From assembly GCA_002269645.1 (NCBI GenBank), contig NIVC01000020.1:1-64000 (forward strand): a stretch of 64,000 nt of DNA, given 5' to 3'. Every line of letters starts with the position of its first letter. Positions within the stretch are counted from its first letter, which is position 1. Positions 135 to 19,078 of this stretch are shown here, in pieces. The translations under genes and the position numbers were made by a program. The notes under the pieces are model-generated. The model searched no databases and had not been told where the DNA came from. It saw only the letters and a program-made list of their open reading frames with translations. Origin of the DNA: Macrostomum lignano (taxonomy: Eukaryota).

Positions 135-1597
135 TCAAATCTGCTTCATGCAGCTCAACCAAGGATAGATGTGTTCATTTTTTTCATTCATTTTTATGTG
201 GCGATTATGTCTAAAATCGGATAAAGTTGAAAGCCTGAAACAATAAGAACGTTGATCCTTCAGTGGCTGAATTAATATGCACTCTATAACCGAGAATTTT
301 TCGGTGGAAGCTACTTCAAAATATTTCATGACTCCAGGAACTAAACCAGCGTTTTCGGTAGAAAAAATATTCCTAAAGTCTCTCTTGTTATTGCTCCCTT
401 TCAGAATAAAACTTTTTGGTTGATTTTTTATAATTTCACTACCTACTGCTTTGGTTCCTTTCAATCCGAATTTCCAAATTTGAATAGACTCGGGAAGTTG
501 TACTTCAATGTAAGAATTGGGTTCATTCCTCGATGCCCATTCTGAATTAGATACTATATAACCCCAATTATCTGACGTTTCAAATGCTCCTGATGACGCT
601 ACATTGAAACCCCTTTCTCTATAGTTTTGACGTGTTGCTAGTGAGGGAATATATCCTGTATAAGATTTGAAACCTAGTCCCCGCCTTAGTCGCAGCTCCA
701 CTGATTCAAGTGCATTGTCTACGTATAGCTTTGGTACAGCTTGAAGTCTATCTATAGGCCACACTAAATCATTAACCACTGTTTGTCTCTCAAGTAATTC
801 AACTTTTGTAAGCTTTACGGAACCAGAAAAATTAAGAGAATAATGGAAATAATATGAGGGATTGGGTATTTTTTTCCTAAGATGTGCATTGCCCCTTCGT
901 AGTTCAATGGGTGCACTTTGTTCAACAGGTGTCCAGTTTGTTCCATTTAGGCTCACACTAACAGACCAACCAGGCCACACCTCTCCTTCCAACTTTATCT
1001 CTACAACTTTCCTAGCTCTTTTCAAAATTGAAATCGTATCCACTTGTCTGAGTCATCTACACTGCTCCATTCTGAAGCTGGGTTTGAATCTGCAACATGA
1101 TATGCTGCTGAAGAGTTATGAGAAGCGGTCACTTTCATGTCAGAATGGGAAGCGTTTGAAGTCAGTAATGAAAGAATATTGACTAATTTCGAACTCTCTG
1201 TACCTCCCGCAGTACCTTGCCTTCTGCTAACAAAGTGTCAATCTCAGTTTTAGAATACATCTTAGTGTCAATTCGTTTTAGAATACATCTTAGTGTCAAT
1301 CTCAGTTTTAGAATACATCTTAGTGTCAGTTTCGGTTTTTGTGTAGACATTGTTTACGCGCCCATGAGCATCGTCAATTAATTGTAGCATGGTGATATTC
1401 ATTGCGTCACTATCTTCCTTTGAATAAGAGTCTGAAACATTTCTCTTTGCTAACAATAAATTATCTATTTCCTCTCTCTTATATCCTTCATTTTCATTGA
1501 TGTATCGATCATCAGCTAACGCTATTGTTATTCCAGGTGCTATATCATTTGAATTTGACGAGTAACCAAATTGATTGGCAGTATTCTTGTAACTCAT
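135..1597 (-). pseudogene. Fibre/receptor-binding-like protein with YSKTEID repeats and two discoidin (F5/8 type C)-like domains; frameshifted
   Basis: ORF 1268-1597 has YKREEID/YTKTETD/YSKTEID repeats. The gap region reads ..SNPASEWSSVDDSDKWIRFQF in another frame. ORF 135-1043 has EWAS..NSYIEVQLPESIQIWKFGLKG..PKSFILKGSNN, a discoidin-like pattern. Confidence 0.6.
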
Positions 1598-2024
1598 TTT
1601 AATTGCTGCAAAATTTCATTATAGCTATCTCCTTTATCGATTCGGTGTAAAAAGTACAGCGACATTTGACCACAATATTTCTTATCAAAAGTTTGAATTT
1701 GTTCTTCCATGTCTCCACATATTCTATTCTTTGTGTGATTAAACTTTTCCATAATTTCCAGTGTGGGCGGTAGTGCATAGGAATAAAAAAATAAACCTTA
1801 TCAGGAGCTGAAAATATAGCTGAATGATGTATACCCCGTTCTTTCGAAGTGTGAATATTTGTCATAAAGTAACCATACTGTGGTAAATCAACAATTTCAT
1901 CTCTCATGGCATAGCGAAATGGTTTTAACTTGAGATATTTTGCCCAATTTATCAGATCAATATTAGTCGTAGTGTCAGTCCCAAACTTTTGTTTAAATGC
2001 ATTCCATGTCTCAGCTTCGCTCAT
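1594..2024 (-). pseudogene. Adenain-like cysteine protease (Polinton PRO), one frameshift
   Basis: Reads FMTNIHTSKERGIHHSAIF..VYFF. After restoring one base near 1790 it continues (D)SYALPPTLE..QIQTFDKKYCGQMSLYFL, giving the His, Asp and Gln/Cys motifs. Confidence 0.85.
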
Positions 2025-2033
2025 TTTTAACAC

Positions 2034-2822
2034 TCATATTTGTCGTACGTGTAGATTTATAAATATTTCCTCGCCATCAAAGTCGTATAGAACACCAGAC
2101 TCATCTTCGATGACAAAGTCGAATGTGCTCAACATGTTTGTAGTTAGTGGTAGGTACACAGGATTTGCGGCTCTTGAATAATTTTACTTCCCATTGGGAC
2201 AGAGAACGATGGAATTGAAAGAAGTATTTGCTTATCAATTAAATGATTTCCATTAGCTGGATCAGTGATAAACCCCCTTTGATATTTAGACAACGAACCA
2301 TGATCGCACTTCTAGCTCCGTCTATCCGAGCTGGATTTGGAGCTCTCTCAAATGGTTTCAAATACACTTCCGAATTGAATCCCAACAGTCTTCTAAAGTT
2401 ATTGGAATGTGCATCCCTGAAATCAACTTGATACTCTGTGGCTAACCGTAACTCAACCCTACGCGTGTCTAGGCTTGCACTGAAAACAATAGCCCCTCTT
2501 TCCAATCATTTGCAGCTGTTAGCAATCTTTGAATCTCGCTTGACAGACTTTTAACTTCCCAAGATCCCGCTTGAATCTTTATTTTTTTCCATGTTCTACC
2601 ACTATCCCTCGAGTATCGCAACTCATTATTGCCTCCTTCAATATTGTTAATAGCATCAAAGACTGCAAACTTTTTTATACCAGCTTCGTATTCTCGATCT
2701 TCATACAAATTTATCGGAGTGCCTAGAGTTTGTCGAAATGGGTTTTTAATTGAAAAGAAGTCAAATGTGCGTTGAAACTTTTTACTCAAGAGGATGTTGA
2801 CTTTTTCTATTTCTTTTTCCAT
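2034..2822 (-). pseudogene. Minor capsid protein (penton, single jelly-roll), multiple frameshifts
   Basis: Segments PINLYEDREYEAG..NNIEGGNNELRY..KIQAGSWEV; RLLGFNSE..IMVRCLNIKGG; and, in shifted frames, VPMGSKIIQEP / PVYLPL..EDESGVLYDFDGEEIFINLHVRQ. These match the Polinton mCP pattern. Confidence 0.85.
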
Positions 2823-3555: not shown

Positions 3556-4328
3556 TTACAATGGGATTTTAGTTAGAACATCCTTATACAAATCTTGCTC
3601 ATCCTCATCAGCTCTTGTATTTATATAGATATAGCCATACTTCTTTTTCCAAGCCTCTCTACATTTAGCCTTGAATATAGCGGGTTCATAATTCGTTTCT
3701 ATATTTCTAGCAATGTGATTTAAGTTTGTATCTTTTTGTTTAAAGATTATGTAACATGTCGTATTCTCCCTGACAGTATTGCGATCTAGTTTGGTAAAAT
3801 TTTGAGCTAGATAAAAACCACAACAGTTTCCATGCCTGCCTCTCTGAAACAGACTTTCCTGAAATGTTTGATTAGCCTCTCCCAAAACATCGTCCAATAT
3901 CACACATGTCTTTAGTCCATTATGAAAAATTTCTTCATTTGGAGTATGGGAAAGAGTGACAGAATTTTCTCTATTACTTCTGAATTTTCTGATGTGCTTT
4001 GCACTCGACCAGGGTTGGCTGCCTCTCGACAAATATGTCTAATATCTTCAGGAGATGCATCCTCACTCACCTGGTAGACATGATAGAGTGAGTTGATAAG
4101 AGAAGGTGGGAGACCATTTTCAAAGCCATATTTTAGAAACTGATACTCTGGATCCATTTGAGATGCTCTGGGAACATATAAAACTAACTCATTAAAGTCA
4201 ACTAGTTTTTCAGGACTTGTAAGAATATGGAATAGTAAATATGTTTTACCCGTATTTGTAGCGCCGATAATACAACATAAAAGAGGATTAGGGAAAATAG
4301 GATCATGCTGAAATTTTACTTTGGGCAT
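3556..4328 (-). pseudogene. A32-like (FtsK-HerA) DNA packaging ATPase, one frameshift near 3960-4000
   Basis: Walker A GATNTGKT in ORF 3912-4328. Walker B VILDD, RGRH and YLAQ motifs in ORF 3556-4032. Confidence 0.92.
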
Positions 4329-4349: not shown

Positions 4350-5712
4350 TTATTCGACGCGGGTCATTTGATATTCACTGGTAACTTTTATTACATTCTT
4401 TGTTTGTTCAAGAATTAGTGCAAAAGCAGTCAGCTCAACATTAGTTGACTTCTTGATAAATAATTGAATATTCACTCCACTCTTGACAGAAACTCATCTG
4501 AGCTGTTAGATCAAAGCAAAAGATTGGATAGATGGTTAGAAAGTCTTGTTTATTAAATGGTGGAGTTACACCGAAACGGCTGCAGATGTCCTCGTACATT
4601 TCATATGCTCTGTGAATGTCTTGAGCTACTGGATCAATTTCAACATAATCATTCGGATACATCACCTGATTTAATCTGACTTGAAGCTGGGTTATTTTCA
4701 CTGCATTTGCTCCAGTTTTGTAAGACACATACTTGTGATCATTAACTATATATGATGGGTTGTTTACGTCATATTTGAAAGCTACAAAGATTGCAAGTGG
4801 CATATTGGAGATGTTGGCTATGTTCCATGTATATGGACTTCCTTGAATGAGTTGTGGCGGAACCGTTACCCTCTCTGGAAATGATACTGTAATGTCCTTG
4901 TTGAGTGATTTTAGAAAAGCTGCTTCAGCACTGGGTGACAAACTAATAGCAGGGATCCAAATCTCAAAGCTATTAATAGTTAACTTAGCTTCCGTCCCGG
5001 CAGTTCCAAAGAAAATTTCAGCATCGTTAGTCTTTCTTGTCCATGTGAATTTATATTTAATTCCTTTGCTAATCTTCTGCCAATCAAGGAACCCAATGAG
5101 GGGTGTTAATGATAGTTTGATTGTTCCACCTCTGTTTGGAGCATTAGTGACATTGTTATAATTTTCAAGCCTCCTAATGTATCCAGTATTCGAATCCTTC
5201 TTATTGAGTCTATTTTTCATAGCGATTGCTGCAGTTCTCACAGCTTCAGCATCTGCGTTGTTTGCTAGAGCTATATCAGAAACAGTCCCAGCATCTCCAG
5301 TGTCTGGAATCCATCCGTATGCTTCTCCAACTTCATTCATTAATTTTGAGTACATTACGGACTTTAAGATTGTGTCATACTCTCCAGGATCATTATAGAC
5401 TTTCTTTGTTCCTCCAATGTCAACTATGAGTTGAGAGAAAAGTCTCATAGGCCAATTATGTTCTAGAGTAATGTTCGTATTCAAGTCGGTGTTATCTCGT
5501 TGTGTTATTGAGTATTTTATACAACCGAATGCCTCTGACATGAGAATGTATGACTCTGTTGAATTGACTTCATGAACTATTTGACCTCCTGCAACATTGA
5601 GATTATTAGTGCTACCTGGAGTTGGAGAAATCTTAATATAGTCTTCTTTCTTTTTGAAAAAGCTAAAAGTTTTGTCCTCATATATGCTCAGTATATCCTT
5701 TTTGTTCTCCAT
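4350..5712 (-). pseudogene. Major capsid protein (double jelly-roll, hexon-like), frameshift near 4485
   Basis: 423-aa ORF with LFSQLIVDIGG..NDPG..YS..GW and YPIFCFDLTAQ. The shifted frame continues KSGVNIQLFIKK..TAFALILEQ..VE to a stop at 4350. Confidence 0.88.
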
Positions 5713-5732: not shown

Positions 5733-6185
5733 CTAAGCTTCATGAGGTCTAAGAATTATCCCATTACCCTGTTTCTCCTTTTCAACTTTAAACGTCTTTA
5801 GCAGCCACTTGACTGCTTCGCTGGGTACTTGTTCGACTCTTTTAGCCGCATCAACTAATACTCCACTCCCTTGAGCCTTTTTCAACTCTTCTAGTTTTTG
5901 CCGTTCAATGCTTTCTATTGTCTTATTATGTTTAGCATTGTTGGCTGTATTAACACTTTTTGCAATCATTGTACCAACTCCTGAGGCTGCTCCGATACCA
6001 CCCAAAATTGCTGGTAGTAAGCCTAATAGAGGAATTATTCCACCTTCATGTTCTTTCTGTTTCTCTTGCAATTCTCGAATCTTCTCTTTAGAAAGATATT
6101 GCTTTTGCTTATTTACAGTAACATATCTTGGTTTTCCCTCTCGAACATATCGATTGAGTCTTGCTTCAGTGTTTTTCTCGCTCAT
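5733..6185 (-). CDS. Adenovirus protein-X-like core protein
   Basis: Basic N-terminus, then EGGIIPLLGLLPAILGGIGAASGVGTMIAKSV, similar to the adenoviral pX GGFLPAL..AAAIGA motif. Contains GSG/GNG motifs. Confidence 0.6.
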   Translation of the reverse strand: MSEKNTEARLNRYVREGKPRYVTVNKQKQYLSKEKIRELQEKQKEHEGGIIPLLGLLPAILGGIGAASGVGTMIAKSVNTANNAKHNKTIESIERQKLEELKKAQGSGVLVDAAKRVEQVPSEAVKWLLKTFKVEKEKQGNGIILRPHEA

Positions 6186-6193
6186 TTTTAAGG

Positions 6194-6616
6194 TCAGAAT
6201 TTCTTCAAACCATTGCCTTGTCTCAAAGACACTTGAGACTGTTCTGCTGTTCCTAGAGCCTTTTTAACAATATCTTGAATAGCCTTATTTGATTGAGAAG
6301 CTATCTGTTGCTCTTCTTCCATTCTTTTCTTTGCTTCTTTATCTCTACGTTTCTTTTTAATATATTCCAGTTCCTCACCTGCTTTAGACATGTCACTGTA
6401 TGATTTCTTCGCATCGAATATGTTCTTCGCTGTGGTAGCTGTTTTACCTATTGCATCAGCTCCACTCACAATTTTACTTCCATGATTTGATAAAAAGTTT
6501 GTGACACCACTGATCATATCACCAATTCCTTCACCCTCTTTATCAGCTAGTAGTTGTGAATCAGACGTTTCAATCTGACCTTTCGCCCGTTTGCAGTTTG
6601 TTCGATAGGCGCTCAT
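6194..6616 (-). CDS. Basic virion core/membrane-lytic-like protein
   Basis: Likely start ATG at 6616 (TAAAAATG context). GEGIGDMISGVTNFLSNHG amphipathic segment, lysine/arginine-rich tail and terminal GNG. Confidence 0.45.
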   Translation of the reverse strand: MSAYRTNCKRAKGQIETSDSQLLADKEGEGIGDMISGVTNFLSNHGSKIVSGADAIGKTATTAKNIFDAKKSYSDMSKAGEELEYIKKKRRDKEAKKRMEEEQQIASQSNKAIQDIVKKALGTAEQSQVSLRQGNGLKKF

Positions 6617-7928
6617 TTTTAGTTGAAAAATTTGCTGGTAGAAGCTGGGATTTGTAAAATGATCCAATGATTTCTTCTCCATTCTCATCCTCAATAATGT
6701 AGGTTATGGGATTGGAGTAAACTATTTTCTTTATCCTAAACACTTCTGAAATTTTCCAATATCCTCTTCGACCCTTTTCAAAGTGCTCCTTATATCTATA
6801 GATATGAACTTTGTCACCTACTTTGAAGTTTGGTTTCTCATTTGAATACTCGAAAGTTGGCTTTGGTACTCGCTCAGGATGTTTAGATGCTTCTGAAGGA
6901 GTTATCAGAATCTCAGAATGGATTGTGTTGTTGTATTTTTCAACAATAGCTGGCAATGTGTGGAGCCACTTCTGATTACCCTGTAGATCGAATTCAAACC
7001 AGAGTTTATTTGTGAGAGTACGATTGAACCTCTCAATCATTGCATTCTTAGACTCACCATAAATTGAGAACATCTTGTTAATATACTCCCCATTTTCATC
7101 TTTCTTTCTTATGTCGTCTTTTGAAAACGAGTATAGCTTGTACATATGCTGATTATAAAACTCCTTGCCTTCATCTACACAAAGTCTCTCTGATCGTCTT
7201 CCTGATTCCTTAAATACTTTTTGGAAAGCTTCTGCAACTTCCGCTCCCGTCTTTGTTTTTAAAGGAACTGCCCAGGCGTAACGTGTAAAACCATCTATGA
7301 TAGTGAGAGCATATTTGTAACCTCTTTCGGGTGGTAGGATAATGATATCTGCATGCCAAATTGTGTCTTTTGCATAGTGAATCATTTTTCTAAACAGTCT
7401 TGGTTTTCTATATTCCCTATGCAATTTTACTGCATCTTCATAGCTAAGACCCTTACCATAAATTGTTAGACAGTCTATACAATTGTTGGGGTTGTGAGTA
7501 TGAATTCCTAATCCAAACCGAACTTTAGCATTGATAATACGCTTTATTAGATTTCTAATGAGTCTCTCCTTTACCGACAAGTCGCTGGTTGGAATAGCAT
7601 CTAAATCAGCTATCATTTTTTCATCAGCAATATGCTTCTTTGCTAGGGCTTCCTCTGGAGTTGAAGACGTCTTTACAGCATCTCTATAGCTTTTGTCATG
7701 ATAGTAAGCAGTCCAATCAATTGGATTAATTGGTAGACTATCATACCGAGGCCAGTCTGTAGTTGGATTGAGTCTCTTGTCTAAATTTGTACCTGGGCCA
7801 GTGAAAGAATACCCTGGAATATGAAATTCGCCAGGATATTTTCCAGTGGCGAAGATGGGTGGTAGTTTTGTTATAGCTGACTGAATATCCAATGCAGAAC
7901 CTAGAAATAATGGTTTACTGAAGGCCAT
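6570..7928 (-). CDS. Parvovirus-type phospholipase A2 domain fused to retroviral-like (rve) integrase
   Basis: N-term GYSFTGPGT..PINPIDWTAYYHDKSY (PLA2 Ca-loop and HD motif). C-term WHADII..IIDGFTRYAWAVPLKTK..CVDEGKEF..IERFNRT (DDE core) plus a KVGDKVHI tail. One uninterrupted 452-aa ORF. Confidence 0.9.
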   Translation of the reverse strand: MAFSKPLFLGSALDIQSAITKLPPIFATGKYPGEFHIPGYSFTGPGTNLDKRLNPTTDWPRYDSLPINPIDWTAYYHDKSYRDAVKTSSTPEEALAKKHIADEKMIADLDAIPTSDLSVKERLIRNLIKRIINAKVRFGLGIHTHNPNNCIDCLTIYGKGLSYEDAVKLHREYRKPRLFRKMIHYAKDTIWHADIIILPPERGYKYALTIIDGFTRYAWAVPLKTKTGAEVAEAFQKVFKESGRRSERLCVDEGKEFYNQHMYKLYSFSKDDIRKKDENGEYINKMFSIYGESKNAMIERFNRTLTNKLWFEFDLQGNQKWLHTLPAIVEKYNNTIHSEILITPSEASKHPERVPKPTFEYSNEKPNFKVGDKVHIYRYKEHFEKGRRGYWKISEVFRIKKIVYSNPITYIIEDENGEEIIGSFYKSQLLPANFSTKNERLSNKLQTGERSD

Positions 7929-8159
7929 TTTTATAAAAATAAATTTAAGTAATCTACAGACTTAGGCTGCGTTAACTGCTGTAGCAATAGAGCCTGCTGC
8001 TGCACCTGCCTGTTCTATGAAAGGTAGATTTGTCTTTTACTAAGTTTGATATGGTGCTTATAGTATCAAAAAAGACCTTCTCCATTATACTCTAGTGGTT
8101 CGCCTATTGTATAGTCTCTTATCTTGCATGATTCTGTAACGTGGTGCGCTTCGTGTCTT

Positions 8160-8700
8160 TTTAGAAAGGGGGTGAACACAATAGACTAGCATGAGACGCT
8201 CCTATTGGTTGCCAAAACCAAAACTTTTTTGGCAGAAATTTTGGTCGCAAGATTTGGCAGAAATTTTGGCAGCCAATAGCAATGTTCAGTGCTGCGGTTA
8301 TGTATAGTTAGTTTGGTGAGTTCCTGCGAGAGCCTATTTGACCATACGCTTCACTCAGTGTGGGTTTCGCACGACGTTAAAGCTGAGTCACAATATAAAA
8401 ATTGCTTTGAGGAGAATTTCTCCTGCTATTTGTTCCATTTTTAAGATACATAATTTAGAAAAGGGTTAGTGAAATCGTCCGTAGGTAGGGTCGCGAGAGC
8501 ATTGTTCGTTTGTAACTTGCGTGGCCCACTTCATGTCTTTTTTTACAGCTAGATAGAGGGTGAACACAAAAGATTTGCACGAGCCACTCCTATTGGATGC
8601 CAAAACCAAACACTTTTTGGCAGAAATTTTGGCAAAAATTTTGGTTTTGGCAGAAATTTTGGCAGCCAATAGAAATGTTGAGTGCTGCGGTTAGTGCTCT
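8160..8700. repeat. Two ~140-bp diverged direct repeats, each an imperfect CCAAT-armed inverted repeat
   Basis: Units at ~8160-8300 and ~8548-8695. Arms cctattggttgccaaaa / ttttggcagccaatag enclose ttttggcagaaa repeats. Confidence 0.85.
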
Positions 8701-9778
8701 AGTAGTCGAGTATGCATGCCACGAAAAATTTAAATTAGCGCTCCATGTTCTTGAATGTCTTCTATTATCTTTAAGTACAAATCTAGAACAGCATTAAAGC
8801 CATTTCAAAGCCTCGGGACAAAGCGAATGTGCAGGAGCAAATTATTGACTTTTGTAGAAGCATTGTATGCCTCGAGTGGACAATTTTTATGCATAGATGG
8901 TAGCTGACTGATCGTTAAAAGCAAAGCTAGTAAGATTGGCTTATTGAAGGGCGTTATGCAATGGGAGAAAAGACTATTATTAAATTTGATGCTAGTTTTG
9001 AAATGATGAAACCTGAAAATAGGTTATTTTAACCCACGAATCAAAAATTTCTTGTGGTTTTACTCACGAAATCGCGCAAAAAGCAATTTTTCAAAACTTT
9101 TGAAAAATCACTAAAATCACTGTTTTCAGACAATTTTCACCTGTTTTTAGTCGATTTTTATCTGTTTTTTGTGATTTTTCAAAATGGGTTGCGCTCAAAC
9201 CTACTTTTCCTATACTACTGGGATTTCATGACAATTTTGTGCAATAAGGGTTCTTCCTGTCCCACTGAACTGAAGGGGAGTCTGAAGTGCTATTTTTCTT
9301 ACTTCAAATTCATGAATGTAAGTAAAAAACAAAGCGCATCAGAAATTACAGTAAAGGTAATGTAATTTAGAGGATTTGGGTTTTGAGATTTTAGGAGGTT
9401 TTGGCGTGCGTGCATTTTGATCTGCTGATGATGCATGACTTTTTTATTTTGCATACATACCTTCACTGTCTGTGATTCATCAGGCTCCATCTCTCAGTAT
9501 TCCACCAAATTTTACCGATTTTTGTAGACTGCTGCTGACACACGCTCGGTTGCGTCCTCTGGACGCGCGTCATCGGTACGGGCATTATCTCAAGATCCAA
9601 AAGCAGTCAACGATCAGATTGAGGTGCGAACACAGTAACTAAAATATTTTTCTTTGATTTGTTGCTTAAAATTCAAGTAGGATAACGTATTTACCCGACT
9701 CCCATTTGTGTATATGTTGTAGCGCAAGTGGTAGGCGGGGGATCTAAAGTTGTTTTCAGGATAGTTAGGATAGTACGC

Positions 9779-10140
9779 GCTGTACTCTGTACGCTGTACT
9801 CTGTACGCTGTACTCTGTACGCTGTACTCTGTACGCTGTACTCTGTACGCTGTACTCTGTACGCTGTACTCTGTACGCTGTACTCTGTACGCTGTACTCT
9901 GTACGCTGTACTCTGTACGCTGTACTCTGTACGCTGTACTCTGTACGCTGTACTCTGTACGCTGTACTCTGTACGCTGTACTCTGTACGCTGTACTCTGT
10001 ACGCTGTACTCTGTACGCTGTACTCTGTACGCTGTACTCTGTACGCTGTACTCTGTACGCTGTACTCTGTACGCTGTACTCTGTACGCTGTACTCTGTAC
10101 GCTGTACTCTGTACGCTGTACTCTGTACGCTGTACTCTGT
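9779..10140. repeat. 14-bp minisatellite (GCTGTACTCTGTAC), ~26 copies
   Basis: Directly visible perfect array. Confidence 0.97.
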
Positions 10141-10346
10141 AAATGCATGTCAATTTTAGCGATCCCCACAAAATTCTGATTGAAATAGATAGATAAGCCT
10201 CAAGTACAGAGAGAGACATAGAGACTGTAAATTCCTGAAGCAGAGAGTGCCGCCCTCAGACTTTTTCATTCTGGGCTTGGGGCCAGACAACGGCGTCTTT
10301 ACGGCCCATTGTTTTGTTGCCTAGATTGTCCCTATTGTTAATCTAT

Positions 10347-10478: not shown

Positions 10479-10663
10479 CTAGGTAATGCACAAATTAAGA
10501 CAATCGACTGCGATTTACAGGATAGCATAGAAATTTCAATAAGTGATTGCTTAATTTATTTCAGTCAGAGAGGTAGGGCAAGGCAAGGTAAGGTAATGAA
10601 CTTTTTAAATATTAAAAAGCAGGGAACGGCGTTTGAAAATATTTAAACGCCGGAACTATTCAC

Positions 10664-11001
10664 CAAATTTAGCATTAATAATTTATGCCGCTTAGAATCA
10701 GCTGTTCCAGAATCAGTGCTGATCAGTGCGAAGAAATCATTTACCAATTTCACATGGATCTAGGTGGAAGCGACTTTTAGTTCACGCTAGCCAGCGGCTG
10801 TAAAATGTTTTATCTAATGCTGCCTACTGAGCGAAACATCCGCGCATATGAGCACTGGCAAGCTGCCGACTCGGATACTTTCCTGGACGAAACAGCAACA
10901 GGCCCAGTCTACCGTGTTGTGCTGCAGCCAAGAGACACATTGCTGGTGCCAGCAGGGTGGATCCATGCAGTCTTCACCCCCGAGGACTCAGTGGCATTTG
11001 G
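10664..11001 (+). pseudogene. JmjC histone demethylase fragment (KDM2/KDM7-like), copy 1, 5' part
   Basis: SFTNFHMDLGGSDF*..LPTERNIRAYEHW..LLVPAGWIHAVFTPEDSVAF. Near-identical to 18416-18755. Confidence 0.85.
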
Positions 11002-11374: not shown

Positions 11375-11590
11375 ACCTAGTAGTCCCTGGCGTTCTTGAT
11401 TGCCTCTTGAAATTGACAAGTCCAACGGAGAAGCATCACTGGCGCCAGGCGGATCGCTTGCTTCCTCGAGATCGGCCCAAATTTGCTCCCGTTGACATCT
11501 TCTCCCTGTAAGCTGTCGGGCTAGGGTAGATCGGGCTTTGGCTTGTAGGACCACGGTATAGTACAAAATTTCGAATCTTGTTTTCGGGTG
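11375..11590 (-). repeat. IR2 segment, copy 1; open frame containing PLDLS
   Basis: About 210 bp, highly similar in inverted orientation to 15790-16000. Confidence 0.85.
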
Positions 11591-15789: not shown

Positions 15790-16000
15790 TCGAAAACAAG
15801 ATTCGAAATTTTGTACTCTACCGTGGTCCTAAAAGCCAAAGCCCGATCTACCTTAGCCCGACAGCTTACAGGGAGAAGATGTCAACGGGAGCAAATTTGG
15901 GCCGATCTCGAGGAAGCAAGCAATCCGCCTGGCGCCAGTGATGCTTCTCCGTTGGACTTGTCGATTTCAAGAGGCAATCAAGAACGCCAGGGACTAGGTC
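15790..16000 (+). repeat. IR2 segment, copy 2; open frame containing PLDLS
   Basis: Inverted copy of 11375-11590. Confidence 0.85.
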
Positions 16001-16850: not shown

Positions 16851-16964
16851 AACTTTTACTGTACTGTATTATAAATCGGGGGGGGGGGTGGGCCCTGTGG
16901 GTCGGCCACGGGGGCGGCCCAAGATAGGAAGTAAATAAGGACAAAAGAGGGACAGCATTAAAAC

Positions 16965-17255
16965 ATTGATTGACTGATTGACTGATTGACTGATTTATTT
17001 ATTGATTGACTGACTGATTGACAGATTGAATGATTGACTGATTGACTGATTGACTGATTTATTTATTGATTGACTGACTGATTGACAGATTTATTTATTG
17101 ATTGACTGACTGATTGACTGATTTATTTATTGATTGACTGACTGATTGACAGATTGACTGGTTGACTGATTGACTGGTTGACTGATTATCACTCAATTAA
17201 TCAGTCTTTGATTGAGATTGAAATGTATTTAAATCGATCAATATTTTAATATCTT
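16965..17255 (-). repeat. Right copy of inverted repeat IR1 (ATTGACTG tandem plus unique part)
   Basis: Reverse-complement match to 10347-10478. Confidence 0.8.
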
Positions 17256-17919: not shown

Positions 17920-18415
17920 TACGAGGGGCATTCAAAAAGTTTTGACAACTGACCTAATATCTTTAAAAGTACATATCACAAAGCGTTGAATTTTTTTTTA
18001 CGAAATCGCCGATATATTGGTTTTAACCATAGAGTATGACTTTTTTCCCTCGAATGTGTTATACTTGTGCGTGGCCAACGCAAGGTGGTGTTTTACAATC
18101 TGCCAAAAATGGAGCCAGTGCACCAGACCAGTGGCGATTTTTCGTTTTCATGCGCTCACGACTCGGAGAAAGCGCGGTCAAAATCCATGCAGACCTGGTC
18201 CAGGTAGTCGGGGACCAAGCCCCTTCCTATCGCACGGTCGCCAGGTGGATAGAGTCCATCAACGCCGGACGGGCCTCCTTGAACGACGACCCCCGGTTTG
18301 GACGACCCAGCACAGCTGTGACCGAAGCCAACATCGCTGCTGTCAGGGCTCTGGTGGACGAGGATCCAAACATTACCGTCGCTGTGATTAGCGAGACTGT
18401 CGGTATTTCCGAATG
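17920..18415 (+). mobile_element. Mariner transposon 5' remnant (TIR plus HTH of transposase)
   Basis: TA + CGAGGGGCATTCAAAAAGTT terminus. Peptide IHADLVQVVGDQAPSYRTVARW..LNDDPRFGRPSTAVT..VRALVDEDPNIT. Confidence 0.9.
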
Positions 18416-19078
18416 CCAAATTTAGCATTAATAATTTATGCCGCTTAGACACAGCTCTTCCCGAATCAGTGCTGATCAGTGCGAAGAAATCATTTACCAA
18501 TTTTCACATAGATCTAGGTGGAAGCGACTTTTAGTTCACGCTAGCCAGCGGCTGTAAAATTTCTTATCTAATGCTGCCTACTGAGCGAAACATCCGCGCA
18601 TATGAGCACTGGCAAGCTGCCGACTCTGATGCTTTCCTGGACGAAACAGCAACAGGCCCAGTCTACCGTGTTGTGCTGCAGCCAAGAAACACATTTGCTG
18701 GTGCTGGCAGGGTGGATCCATGCAGTCTACACCCCCGAGGACTCAGTGGCATTTGGCGGCAACTTCCTTAGCGTCTATGGCACGAATACGCACATTGCCG
18801 TGACTCAATCCGAGGAGAGGACCAAAGTCGCAGAGCAGTTTCGATTTCCGAATTTAAAATTTATCCTATGGCACTTTTCTGATTGGCTTCGTAATACTGA
18901 AAATTTAGAAAAAATGAAACTTTCTTTTTTCGATTTCGAATCATTAGCAGGAAACCTATCGAAATGGAGGAGACAATGCCCGGACGAGCTCGCTGAACGA
19001 TTGCAAAACATATTGCAAGGACTTTCGGAGTTGAAGGAAAAAACAATGCCAACAAGGCGTGCGTTGAAGCAAAAGTGA
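18416..19078 (+). pseudogene. JmjC histone demethylase (KDM2/KDM7-like), copy 2; one TAG and one frameshift
   Basis: FTNFHIDLGGS (HxD), GWIHAVYTPEDSVAFGGNFL (distal His), EERTKVAEQFRFP..LW. Confidence 0.88.

Follow-up and report, generated by a model that had tools for sequence, protein, structure and literature searches.

In Alpha adintoviruses, PLA2X couples a PLA2 domain to a pX-like tail and has a proposed role in entry (Starrett et al. 2021, PMC8502044), placing a parvovirus-like PLA2 in a polinton virion module, as in the locus analyzed here. PLA2 is treated as its own gene by Yutin 2015 (PMC4642659), where polinton lipases are proposed to be virion entry proteins, and by Geisler 2018, and it is mentioned without any fusion in the portions of Yutin 2013 and Barth 2024 covered here. 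The parvovirus VP1u also carries a PLA2 of the PF08398 type, tethered there to a capsid protein and here to an integrase. Mavirus virions contain integrase (MV02), protease (MVP) and lipase (MV13); cleavage by this protease is at GG|X and GX|G (GY|G), and the lipase occurs in two pieces separated by a potential GK|G site (PMC6048507). Mavirus resembles the present element in having an rve integrase and a lipase, but it encodes them as separate genes and its lipase is an alpha/beta hydrolase, not a PLA2 (PMC6048507). The closest described proteins are named in the supplement of Buck et al. 2024 (PMC11071296) as Adinto6405_PLA2-integrase and Adinto15303_PLA2-Integrase, from Adintovirus nemertoderma6405 (BK066529) and Adintovirus sediment15303 (BK066759). 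In the main text of that paper, both versions, the string 'pla2' occurs 0 times, the passages searched describe no fusion mechanism, cleavage site or frameshift for such proteins, and its frameshift passages concern Penton and Hexon-Adenain. Across the portions of the open literature covered, a scope outside which lie Repbase and most subscription papers, we found nothing written about how a PLA2-integrase works, about protease-integrase fusions or about a polinton integrase frameshift.

Here we analyze a 64,000-nt stretch of Macrostomum lignano contig NIVC01000020.1 (the window), in which PLA2 and integrase are encoded by a single reverse-strand ORF of 452 aa without internal stop (6570..7928). 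The first-pass annotation had proposed this fusion from a set of motifs, and the analysis bears it out: all the quoted motifs are present (GYSFTGPGT at residues 39-47, YYHDKSY at 75-81, AKVRFGLG at 134-141 and HTHNPNNCIDC at 143-153), and both Pfam domains exceed their cut-offs (PF08398 at residues 34-110, 35.8 bits versus 23.9; rve PF00665 at residues 186-262, 39.4 bits versus 32.6). The fusion alone is no surprise, since the architecture is already labelled in the supplement of Buck et al. 2024 (PMC11071296) and common in databases; its value lies in the comparative pattern formed with protease-integrase proteins and frameshift-linked PLA2/integrase loci, and it bears on how a polinton integrase gets to the incoming genome.

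The parvovirus-type PLA2 domain spans residues 34-138 (7515..7829, reverse strand, as are all features of the fusion), and is helical with high pLDDT. It carries the calcium loop, His-Asp pair and second Asp of PF08398-type enzymes, whose retention we give as counts among 79 two-domain homologues. GYSFTGPGT (7788..7814), which we take to be the calcium-binding loop, keeps G44 in 77/79 and G46 in 47/79; the predicted catalytic pair H77 and D78 (7695..7700) is kept in 79/79 and 78/79, respectively, and the second conserved Asp, D102 (7623..7625), in 79/79. Solved parvoviral VP1 structures are weakly matched when the N-terminal 143 aa are searched against PDB with phmmer (E 0.2-1.6), and a profile built from relatives matches AAV VP1 at E 4e-5. 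The integrase (6633..7442) comprises a short N-terminal helix, a DDE core and a C-terminal beta domain, with its triad at D194 (7347-7349), D252 (7173-7175) and E299 (7032-7034) and a D252-to-E299 spacing of 46. It had been described as a full DDE integrase, which holds for the catalytic core and the C-terminal beta domain but not beyond them, as Pfam finds no chromodomain and no HHCC-type N-terminal domain is evident in the fusion protein. Foldseek matches the integrase model to the integrases of MELD virus (E 6.6e-21), foamy virus (E 2.8e-15) and mavirus (E 1.2e-14).

An AlphaFold model of the whole chain (65-sequence alignment, mean pLDDT 82.1, pTM 0.58) contains two confident domains, with pLDDT below 50 at residues 141-160, between the two GxG motifs of the protein; PLA2 and integrase are thus predicted to be two folded domains joined by a flexible, disordered linker. 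The last PLA2 helix (119-138) ends at GLG (7506..7514), the first candidate GX|G cut site, in which G139 is kept in 79/79 and G141 in 71/79 two-domain homologues. The second candidate, IYGK|G (residues 156-160, 7449..7463), matches the adenovirus protease consensus. Between them lies an H-x4-C-x2-C stretch (7470..7496) that might form a small metal site. The HTHNPNNCIDC linker noted in the first-pass annotation is indeed present, but it is lineage-specific, and that description had overlooked the second GxG. By eye, such a stretch occurs among the best 120 homologues in 4 only (P0001, P0003, P0004 and P0014) and is missing from P0002, which is 75% identical to the window's fusion; a family-wide zinc domain was rejected on this basis. 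At the other end of the protein, the last ~20 residues (low pLDDT, window 6570-6688) run into the beginning of the next ORF; many relatives stop earlier, and the extra tail may be peculiar to this lineage or copy.

The neighboring genes follow the fusion downstream, all on the reverse strand. Next to the fusion lie a putative core protein with two GxG motifs (6194..6688), which by eye resembles 'Cytocx' of Adinto6405, and a putative pX-like core protein (5733..6185; pX likeness by eye) with a GGIIPLLG stretch and two GxG motifs. They are followed by a double jelly-roll capsid protein (4441..5712; PF21738 E 2e-10, and tblastn) and by four genes that are broken in the assembly: an A32/FtsK-type packaging ATPase (3595..4328; tblastn E 4e-19, two frames), a penton or minor capsid protein (2037..2822; tblastn in two frames, ORF 2469-2822), an adenain-type maturation protease (1599..2024; L081 protease as tblastn query, E 2e-6 over 1600-1791) and a fibre-like gene (243..1597; tblastn E 2e-8 with the L016 fibre, itself a weak match to F5_F8_type_C) that contains short repeats and probably a discoidin-type domain. 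The protease is matched by 1/4 protease queries in tblastn, and no Pfam protease domain is matched in the window. In the frame-broken region, contigs built from the short reads of independent runs depart from the window by small indels, most of which occur in 3 or 4 of 4 runs, so that the breaks in ATPase, penton, protease and fibre may be assembly errors. Upstream of the fusion are two imperfect direct repeats (79%; 8140-8300 and 8520-8693) and, at 9214..9219 on the reverse strand, an AGTAGT that we presume to be a terminus motif and treat as a candidate element end, the other end being outside the window. The element appears to continue past the window start, and 0/5 PolB queries matched within the 64-kb window by tblastn.

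The rve DDE integrase, capsid and penton, packaging ATPase and adenain/Ulp1-type protease seen here are Maverick/Polinton traits; a protein-primed PolB, terminal inverted repeats and a 6-bp target-site duplication are further marks of that group. Adintoviruses as described by Starrett and Buck have a PolB with an N-terminal OTU domain and an integrase with a C-terminal chromodomain. Pfam does not detect a chromodomain here, and we therefore assign the element to the Maverick/Polinton type without calling it an adintovirus in the strict sense. The fusion also differs from PLA2X, which by definition is encoded on its own and has a pX-like C-terminus (L082-L086, L088 and L092 are of this kind): here the integrase comes after PLA2, and the pX-like protein is encoded apart. 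As far as their labelled sequences go, by eye and unaligned, the 6405 and 15303 proteins share with the window PLA2, KxxxGxG, an ELH helix, a DDE core and the lack of a terminal chromodomain; in 6405 the PLA2-integrase is listed beside 'Cytocx' and Hexon, as here, and its protease and hexon are like the window's by eye, whereas the window's linker is longer than in either, adding H-x4-CxxC and the second GxG.

A homologue search returned 415 matches among 3728 candidates. Both Pfam domains occur in 79 of the best 120 of these, a proportion that is no measure of prevalence because the length filter (248-791 aa) favors fused forms, and our own PLA2 profile matches 98 of the same 120, whose identity to the window's fusion ranges over 32-79%. 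H77, D102, K135, G139, D194, D252 and E299 are invariant in the two-domain set. With both domains and their catalytic residues thus retained, the fusion is no accident of one copy, and the possible novelty of the architecture raised by the first-pass annotation does not hold, commonness in databases being one of the refuting conditions that it had itself named. The window belongs to a clade of 67 rows (support 0.997) whose members are in-frame fusions or lack a PLA2 match, several of the latter being cut off N-terminally; in the well-supported group that holds the window, 11/11 rows are fused in frame (SH-aLRT 99). A single-protein scan of viral contigs with the fusion gave no match. One in-frame PLA2 fusion, P0154, falls outside the main clade, and together with L057 it suggests independent origins.

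The fusion, its retained active-site residues, their conservation, the GX|G motifs and the neighboring capsid, ATPase and protease genes are direct observations. We propose that the PLA2-integrase chain would be incorporated into the capsid as a core precursor. The element's own adenain-type protease would cut the linker at GL|G and/or IYGK|G, releasing a PLA2 of 16-18 kDa that would breach the endosome and an integrase of 35-37 kDa that would insert the incoming genome, with the two delivered in 1:1 stoichiometry. We consider this account as a whole, from packaging through cleavage at GL|G and/or GK|G to endosome escape aided by PLA2 and to integration, moderately probable. The first-pass annotation had likewise suggested virion packaging with cleavage at GLG; this is also the best reading here, given the mavirus precedent, but taken by itself GLG argues only weakly for a cut.

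The motif evidence for cleavage points both ways. GxG followed by a hydrophobic residue occurs only twice in the fusion, at 139 (GLGI) and 158 (GKGL), at the edges of the disordered linker. The adenovirus protease consensus is (M/I/L)XGX|G (PMC4246237), which IYGK|G fits; this site is confined to the closest relatives. In GL|G the P4 residue is Arg (mostly Lys in the family), against M/I/L in the consensus. GxG[LIVMF] was observed 40 times versus 7.4 expected in 12 putative core/PLA2X proteins, an enrichment that is partly circular since these 'core' proteins were chosen after the motif had been seen, and 1 time versus 7.2 expected in 38 capsid, enzyme and integrase proteins. Stand-alone PLA2s likewise end in KxxxGxG (in 52/150 profile matches it is followed by <=30 residues, in some by none), so the fold may be what conserves G139, and GLG alone is a weak pointer to a cut. 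It is unlikely, though compatible with this ending of stand-alone PLA2s in GxG, that the fusion is packaged and stays uncut, PLA2 serving as a permanent arm that targets the integrase to the virion and breaks membranes, with GLG marking the end of the fold. Such an uncut protein is favored by the 7/88 fused homologues whose linker lacks GxG/GG, and by linkers that can leave as few as 8 residues between G139 and the integrase His; the second GX|G in the disordered linker of the window's lineage speaks against it, as do protease-integrase proteins in which the motif is kept with PLA2 absent. This candidate second site and the GxG linker of the protease-integrase fusions are the better motif evidence for a cut.

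Judged from sequence, the integrase family has three linked layouts, namely the in-frame PLA2-integrase of the window, an in-frame protease-integrase and an out-of-frame PLA2/integrase, the last of which likely needs a frameshift. In L029 (128-1471), L044 (535-1899), P0109 and P0271-P0390, adenain-type protease and integrase are fused through a GxGI linker, and in L029, L044 and P0109 the maturation protease replaces PLA2 ahead of the integrase. The protease part is 46% identical (E 2e-46) to the L018 protease, a naturally intact one (7457-7879), and matches Peptidase_C5 weakly; the linker of L029 reads GSGI. A protease Cys motif and the integrase start share one chain in 115 of the best 120 of 244 matches, a fraction that is no prevalence, since the query reached into the start of the integrase and matches were filtered by length, and GxG/GG lies within the last 25 linker residues in 113/115 of these listed proteins. 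As there is no PLA2 fold here to need the motif, this linker is the most independent support for the putative cleavage, and it weighs against an uncut fusion in particular. The 11 sampled protease-integrase rows nest among PLA2-integrase fusions (SH-aLRT 97 and 99) and P0109 stands apart, so that this fusion arose at least twice. Some protease-integrase fusions of 611-666 aa carry an extra N-terminal C2H2-like stretch, and P0231 appears by eye to join PLA2 and protease in frame at GLG. PLA2X-Adenain fusions are labelled by Buck et al. 2024 (PMC11071296), and the portion covered of that work's supplement text has no 'Adenain-int' label.

A different account sees packaging as no part of the purpose: the integrase would simply borrow the start codon and promoter of a neighboring late gene, an economy in keeping with the compactness of polintons. 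The fusion is indeed dispensable, in that the L038, L024, L019 and L030 integrases, of the same clade, have their own Met and no PLA2. We nevertheless hold this account to be rather improbable, for the identified N-terminal partners are of virion type (PLA2, protease) with a GxG-type linker, which start-codon borrowing does not predict.

Reads support the integrity of the window's ORF. In the 4/4 runs mapped, 30/30 bins are covered; 0 of the 12 indels listed (of 44) between read contigs and the window fall inside the fusion ORF, and 12/19 of its substitutions (19 from 40 listed of 396) are at third codon positions (P 0.007). The fusion region is present in 20/24 listed runs, from 8 studies and 2 organisms. 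That a copy-specific accident or assembly error merged two separate genes is barely credible, even with other genes of this copy frame-broken in the assembly, 20 related loci carrying both domains out of frame and one diverged contig across the junction with 2 gaps, for independent homologues at 53-79% identity have the same linker in frame, the window's clade consists of in-frame fusions or members without a PLA2 match, the fusion's own linker has no A-run longer than 4, and the two-domain proteins of the homologue search refute a copy-specific accident.

The third layout was followed in a survey of 151 locus ids (5 known duplicates), for which the metagenome scan kept 80 of 410, with the frame state set from hand-set ORF pairs. 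PLA2 lies directly before the integrase in frame at 15 loci, 4 of them with internal stops; L069, L078 and L087 are in frame at or through the linker and broken further on. The two are out of frame at 20 loci (-1 in 15 and +1 in 5, L121 being +1), and PLA2 is a separate gene at 9. At L009, L011, L015, L016, L018, L026, L027, L028, L057, L090, L121 and L122 the frame changes at A-runs just past GxG, and in L016, L018, L090 and L121 the large genes around the junction are long open frames. A start codon of the integrase's own was rejected for the out-of-frame relatives, because in 13/15 out-of-frame loci examined there is no Met in the integrase frame before the first catalytic Asp; splicing was also rejected, no conserved donor or acceptor being seen by eye. 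The stretch of integrase frame preceding that Asp diverges by 0.27/0.23/0.61 at the three codon positions (14 loci), that is, mainly at third positions, so it is likely translated. A-run junctions, mostly with no Met before the first Asp, suggest Gag-Pol-like frameshifting, and programmed slippage, ribosomal or polymerase, is in our estimation fairly probable in the out-of-frame relatives.

Several tests bear on this slippage. A shift occurs at the junction in 10/12 chosen main-subclade loci versus 0/18 other A/T runs >=6 (P 2e-6), a control that is partly circular because loci broken elsewhere were left out. Canonical X_XXY_YYZ heptamers are found at 10/15 -1 loci versus 5.6 under a synonymous-codon null (P ~0.012; the loci are related), which we used in place of a naive null (9/14 versus 0.57) that overstates the effect; a heptamer of G_GGU_UUG type occurs also in 4/11 stand-alone PLA2 tails. 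L009 and L015 share A_AAA_AAC immediately before a stop. No conserved stimulatory hairpin was found downstream (mean z -0.24 over 13 loci, strong in L057 only), and junctions show no excess of AAA relative to AAG (34:13 versus 495:270, P 0.34). Against slippage, shifts go in both directions and the tree mixes in-frame members among the others. The out-of-frame loci might also be explained by hotspot decay or by assembly error at A-runs. The window's fusion itself has no slip site, its longest linker A-run being 4. In a distant integrase lineage, L057 (1952-2010) has A_AAA_AAC followed by a close downstream hairpin (z -3.96). DUF5679 (CxxC...CxxC), absent from the window's fusion protein, forms the PLA2 N-terminus in the out-of-frame clade (L016:8314-8829 and relatives) and stands alone in L038.

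In the Gag-Pol of retroviruses and LTR retrotransposons, the integrase forms the end of a virion protein, reached either in frame or through a frameshift, and is freed by the viral protease. The likeness of the window's fusion to this arrangement is one of analogy and not of membership, even with an integrase fold that matches foamy virus: the present element is of a dsDNA jelly-roll virus type, with a cysteine protease and no RT, and the carrier is a lipase or a protease in place of Gag. We put forward tentatively, with slightly less than even confidence, that a broad polinton clade converged on the Gag-Pol strategy, the integrase being the tail of a virion protein (PLA2 or the maturation protease) and released at GxG, at 1:1 dose where fused in frame and at low dose by A-run slippage in sisters. 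The three-layout pattern predicts a cleavage motif for the polinton protease and suggests recoding in a DNA virus lineage. If the Gag-Pol-like reading were true, many polinton integrases annotated from the first Met would be truncated past the first catalytic Asp; by eye, Buck et al. 2024 (PMC11071296, supplement) start the Adinto13074 integrase at a Met that comes after that residue. According to the portion covered of a Maverick-Polinton framework paper, no virions have been observed (10.64898/2026.06.19.733378).

The remainder of the window holds other repeats and element fragments. A duplicated segment (10663-11001 and 18416-18756, 95-97% identical) includes a JmjC-domain fragment in its first copy and is possibly carried by a repeat element. 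A pair of 206-nt inverted repeats (11381-11586 with 15791-15996; 98%), 4.2 kb apart, suggests a DNA transposon, and a mariner-like HTH fragment lies at 18036-18425. An apparently intact non-LTR element at 19781-23095 encodes 1104 aa with an endonuclease fragment, RT and RNase H, and a second RT fragment is found at 23513-24436. The LINE-type RTs and the mariner-like fragment suggest that the host is a eukaryote and probably an animal. There are also a 14-nt tandem array (9778-10141) and a TTGA/CTGA microsatellite (16925-17227). Among the related contigs, L121-L143 carry polinton-type integrases on contigs of bacterial MAGs, probably through binning contamination.
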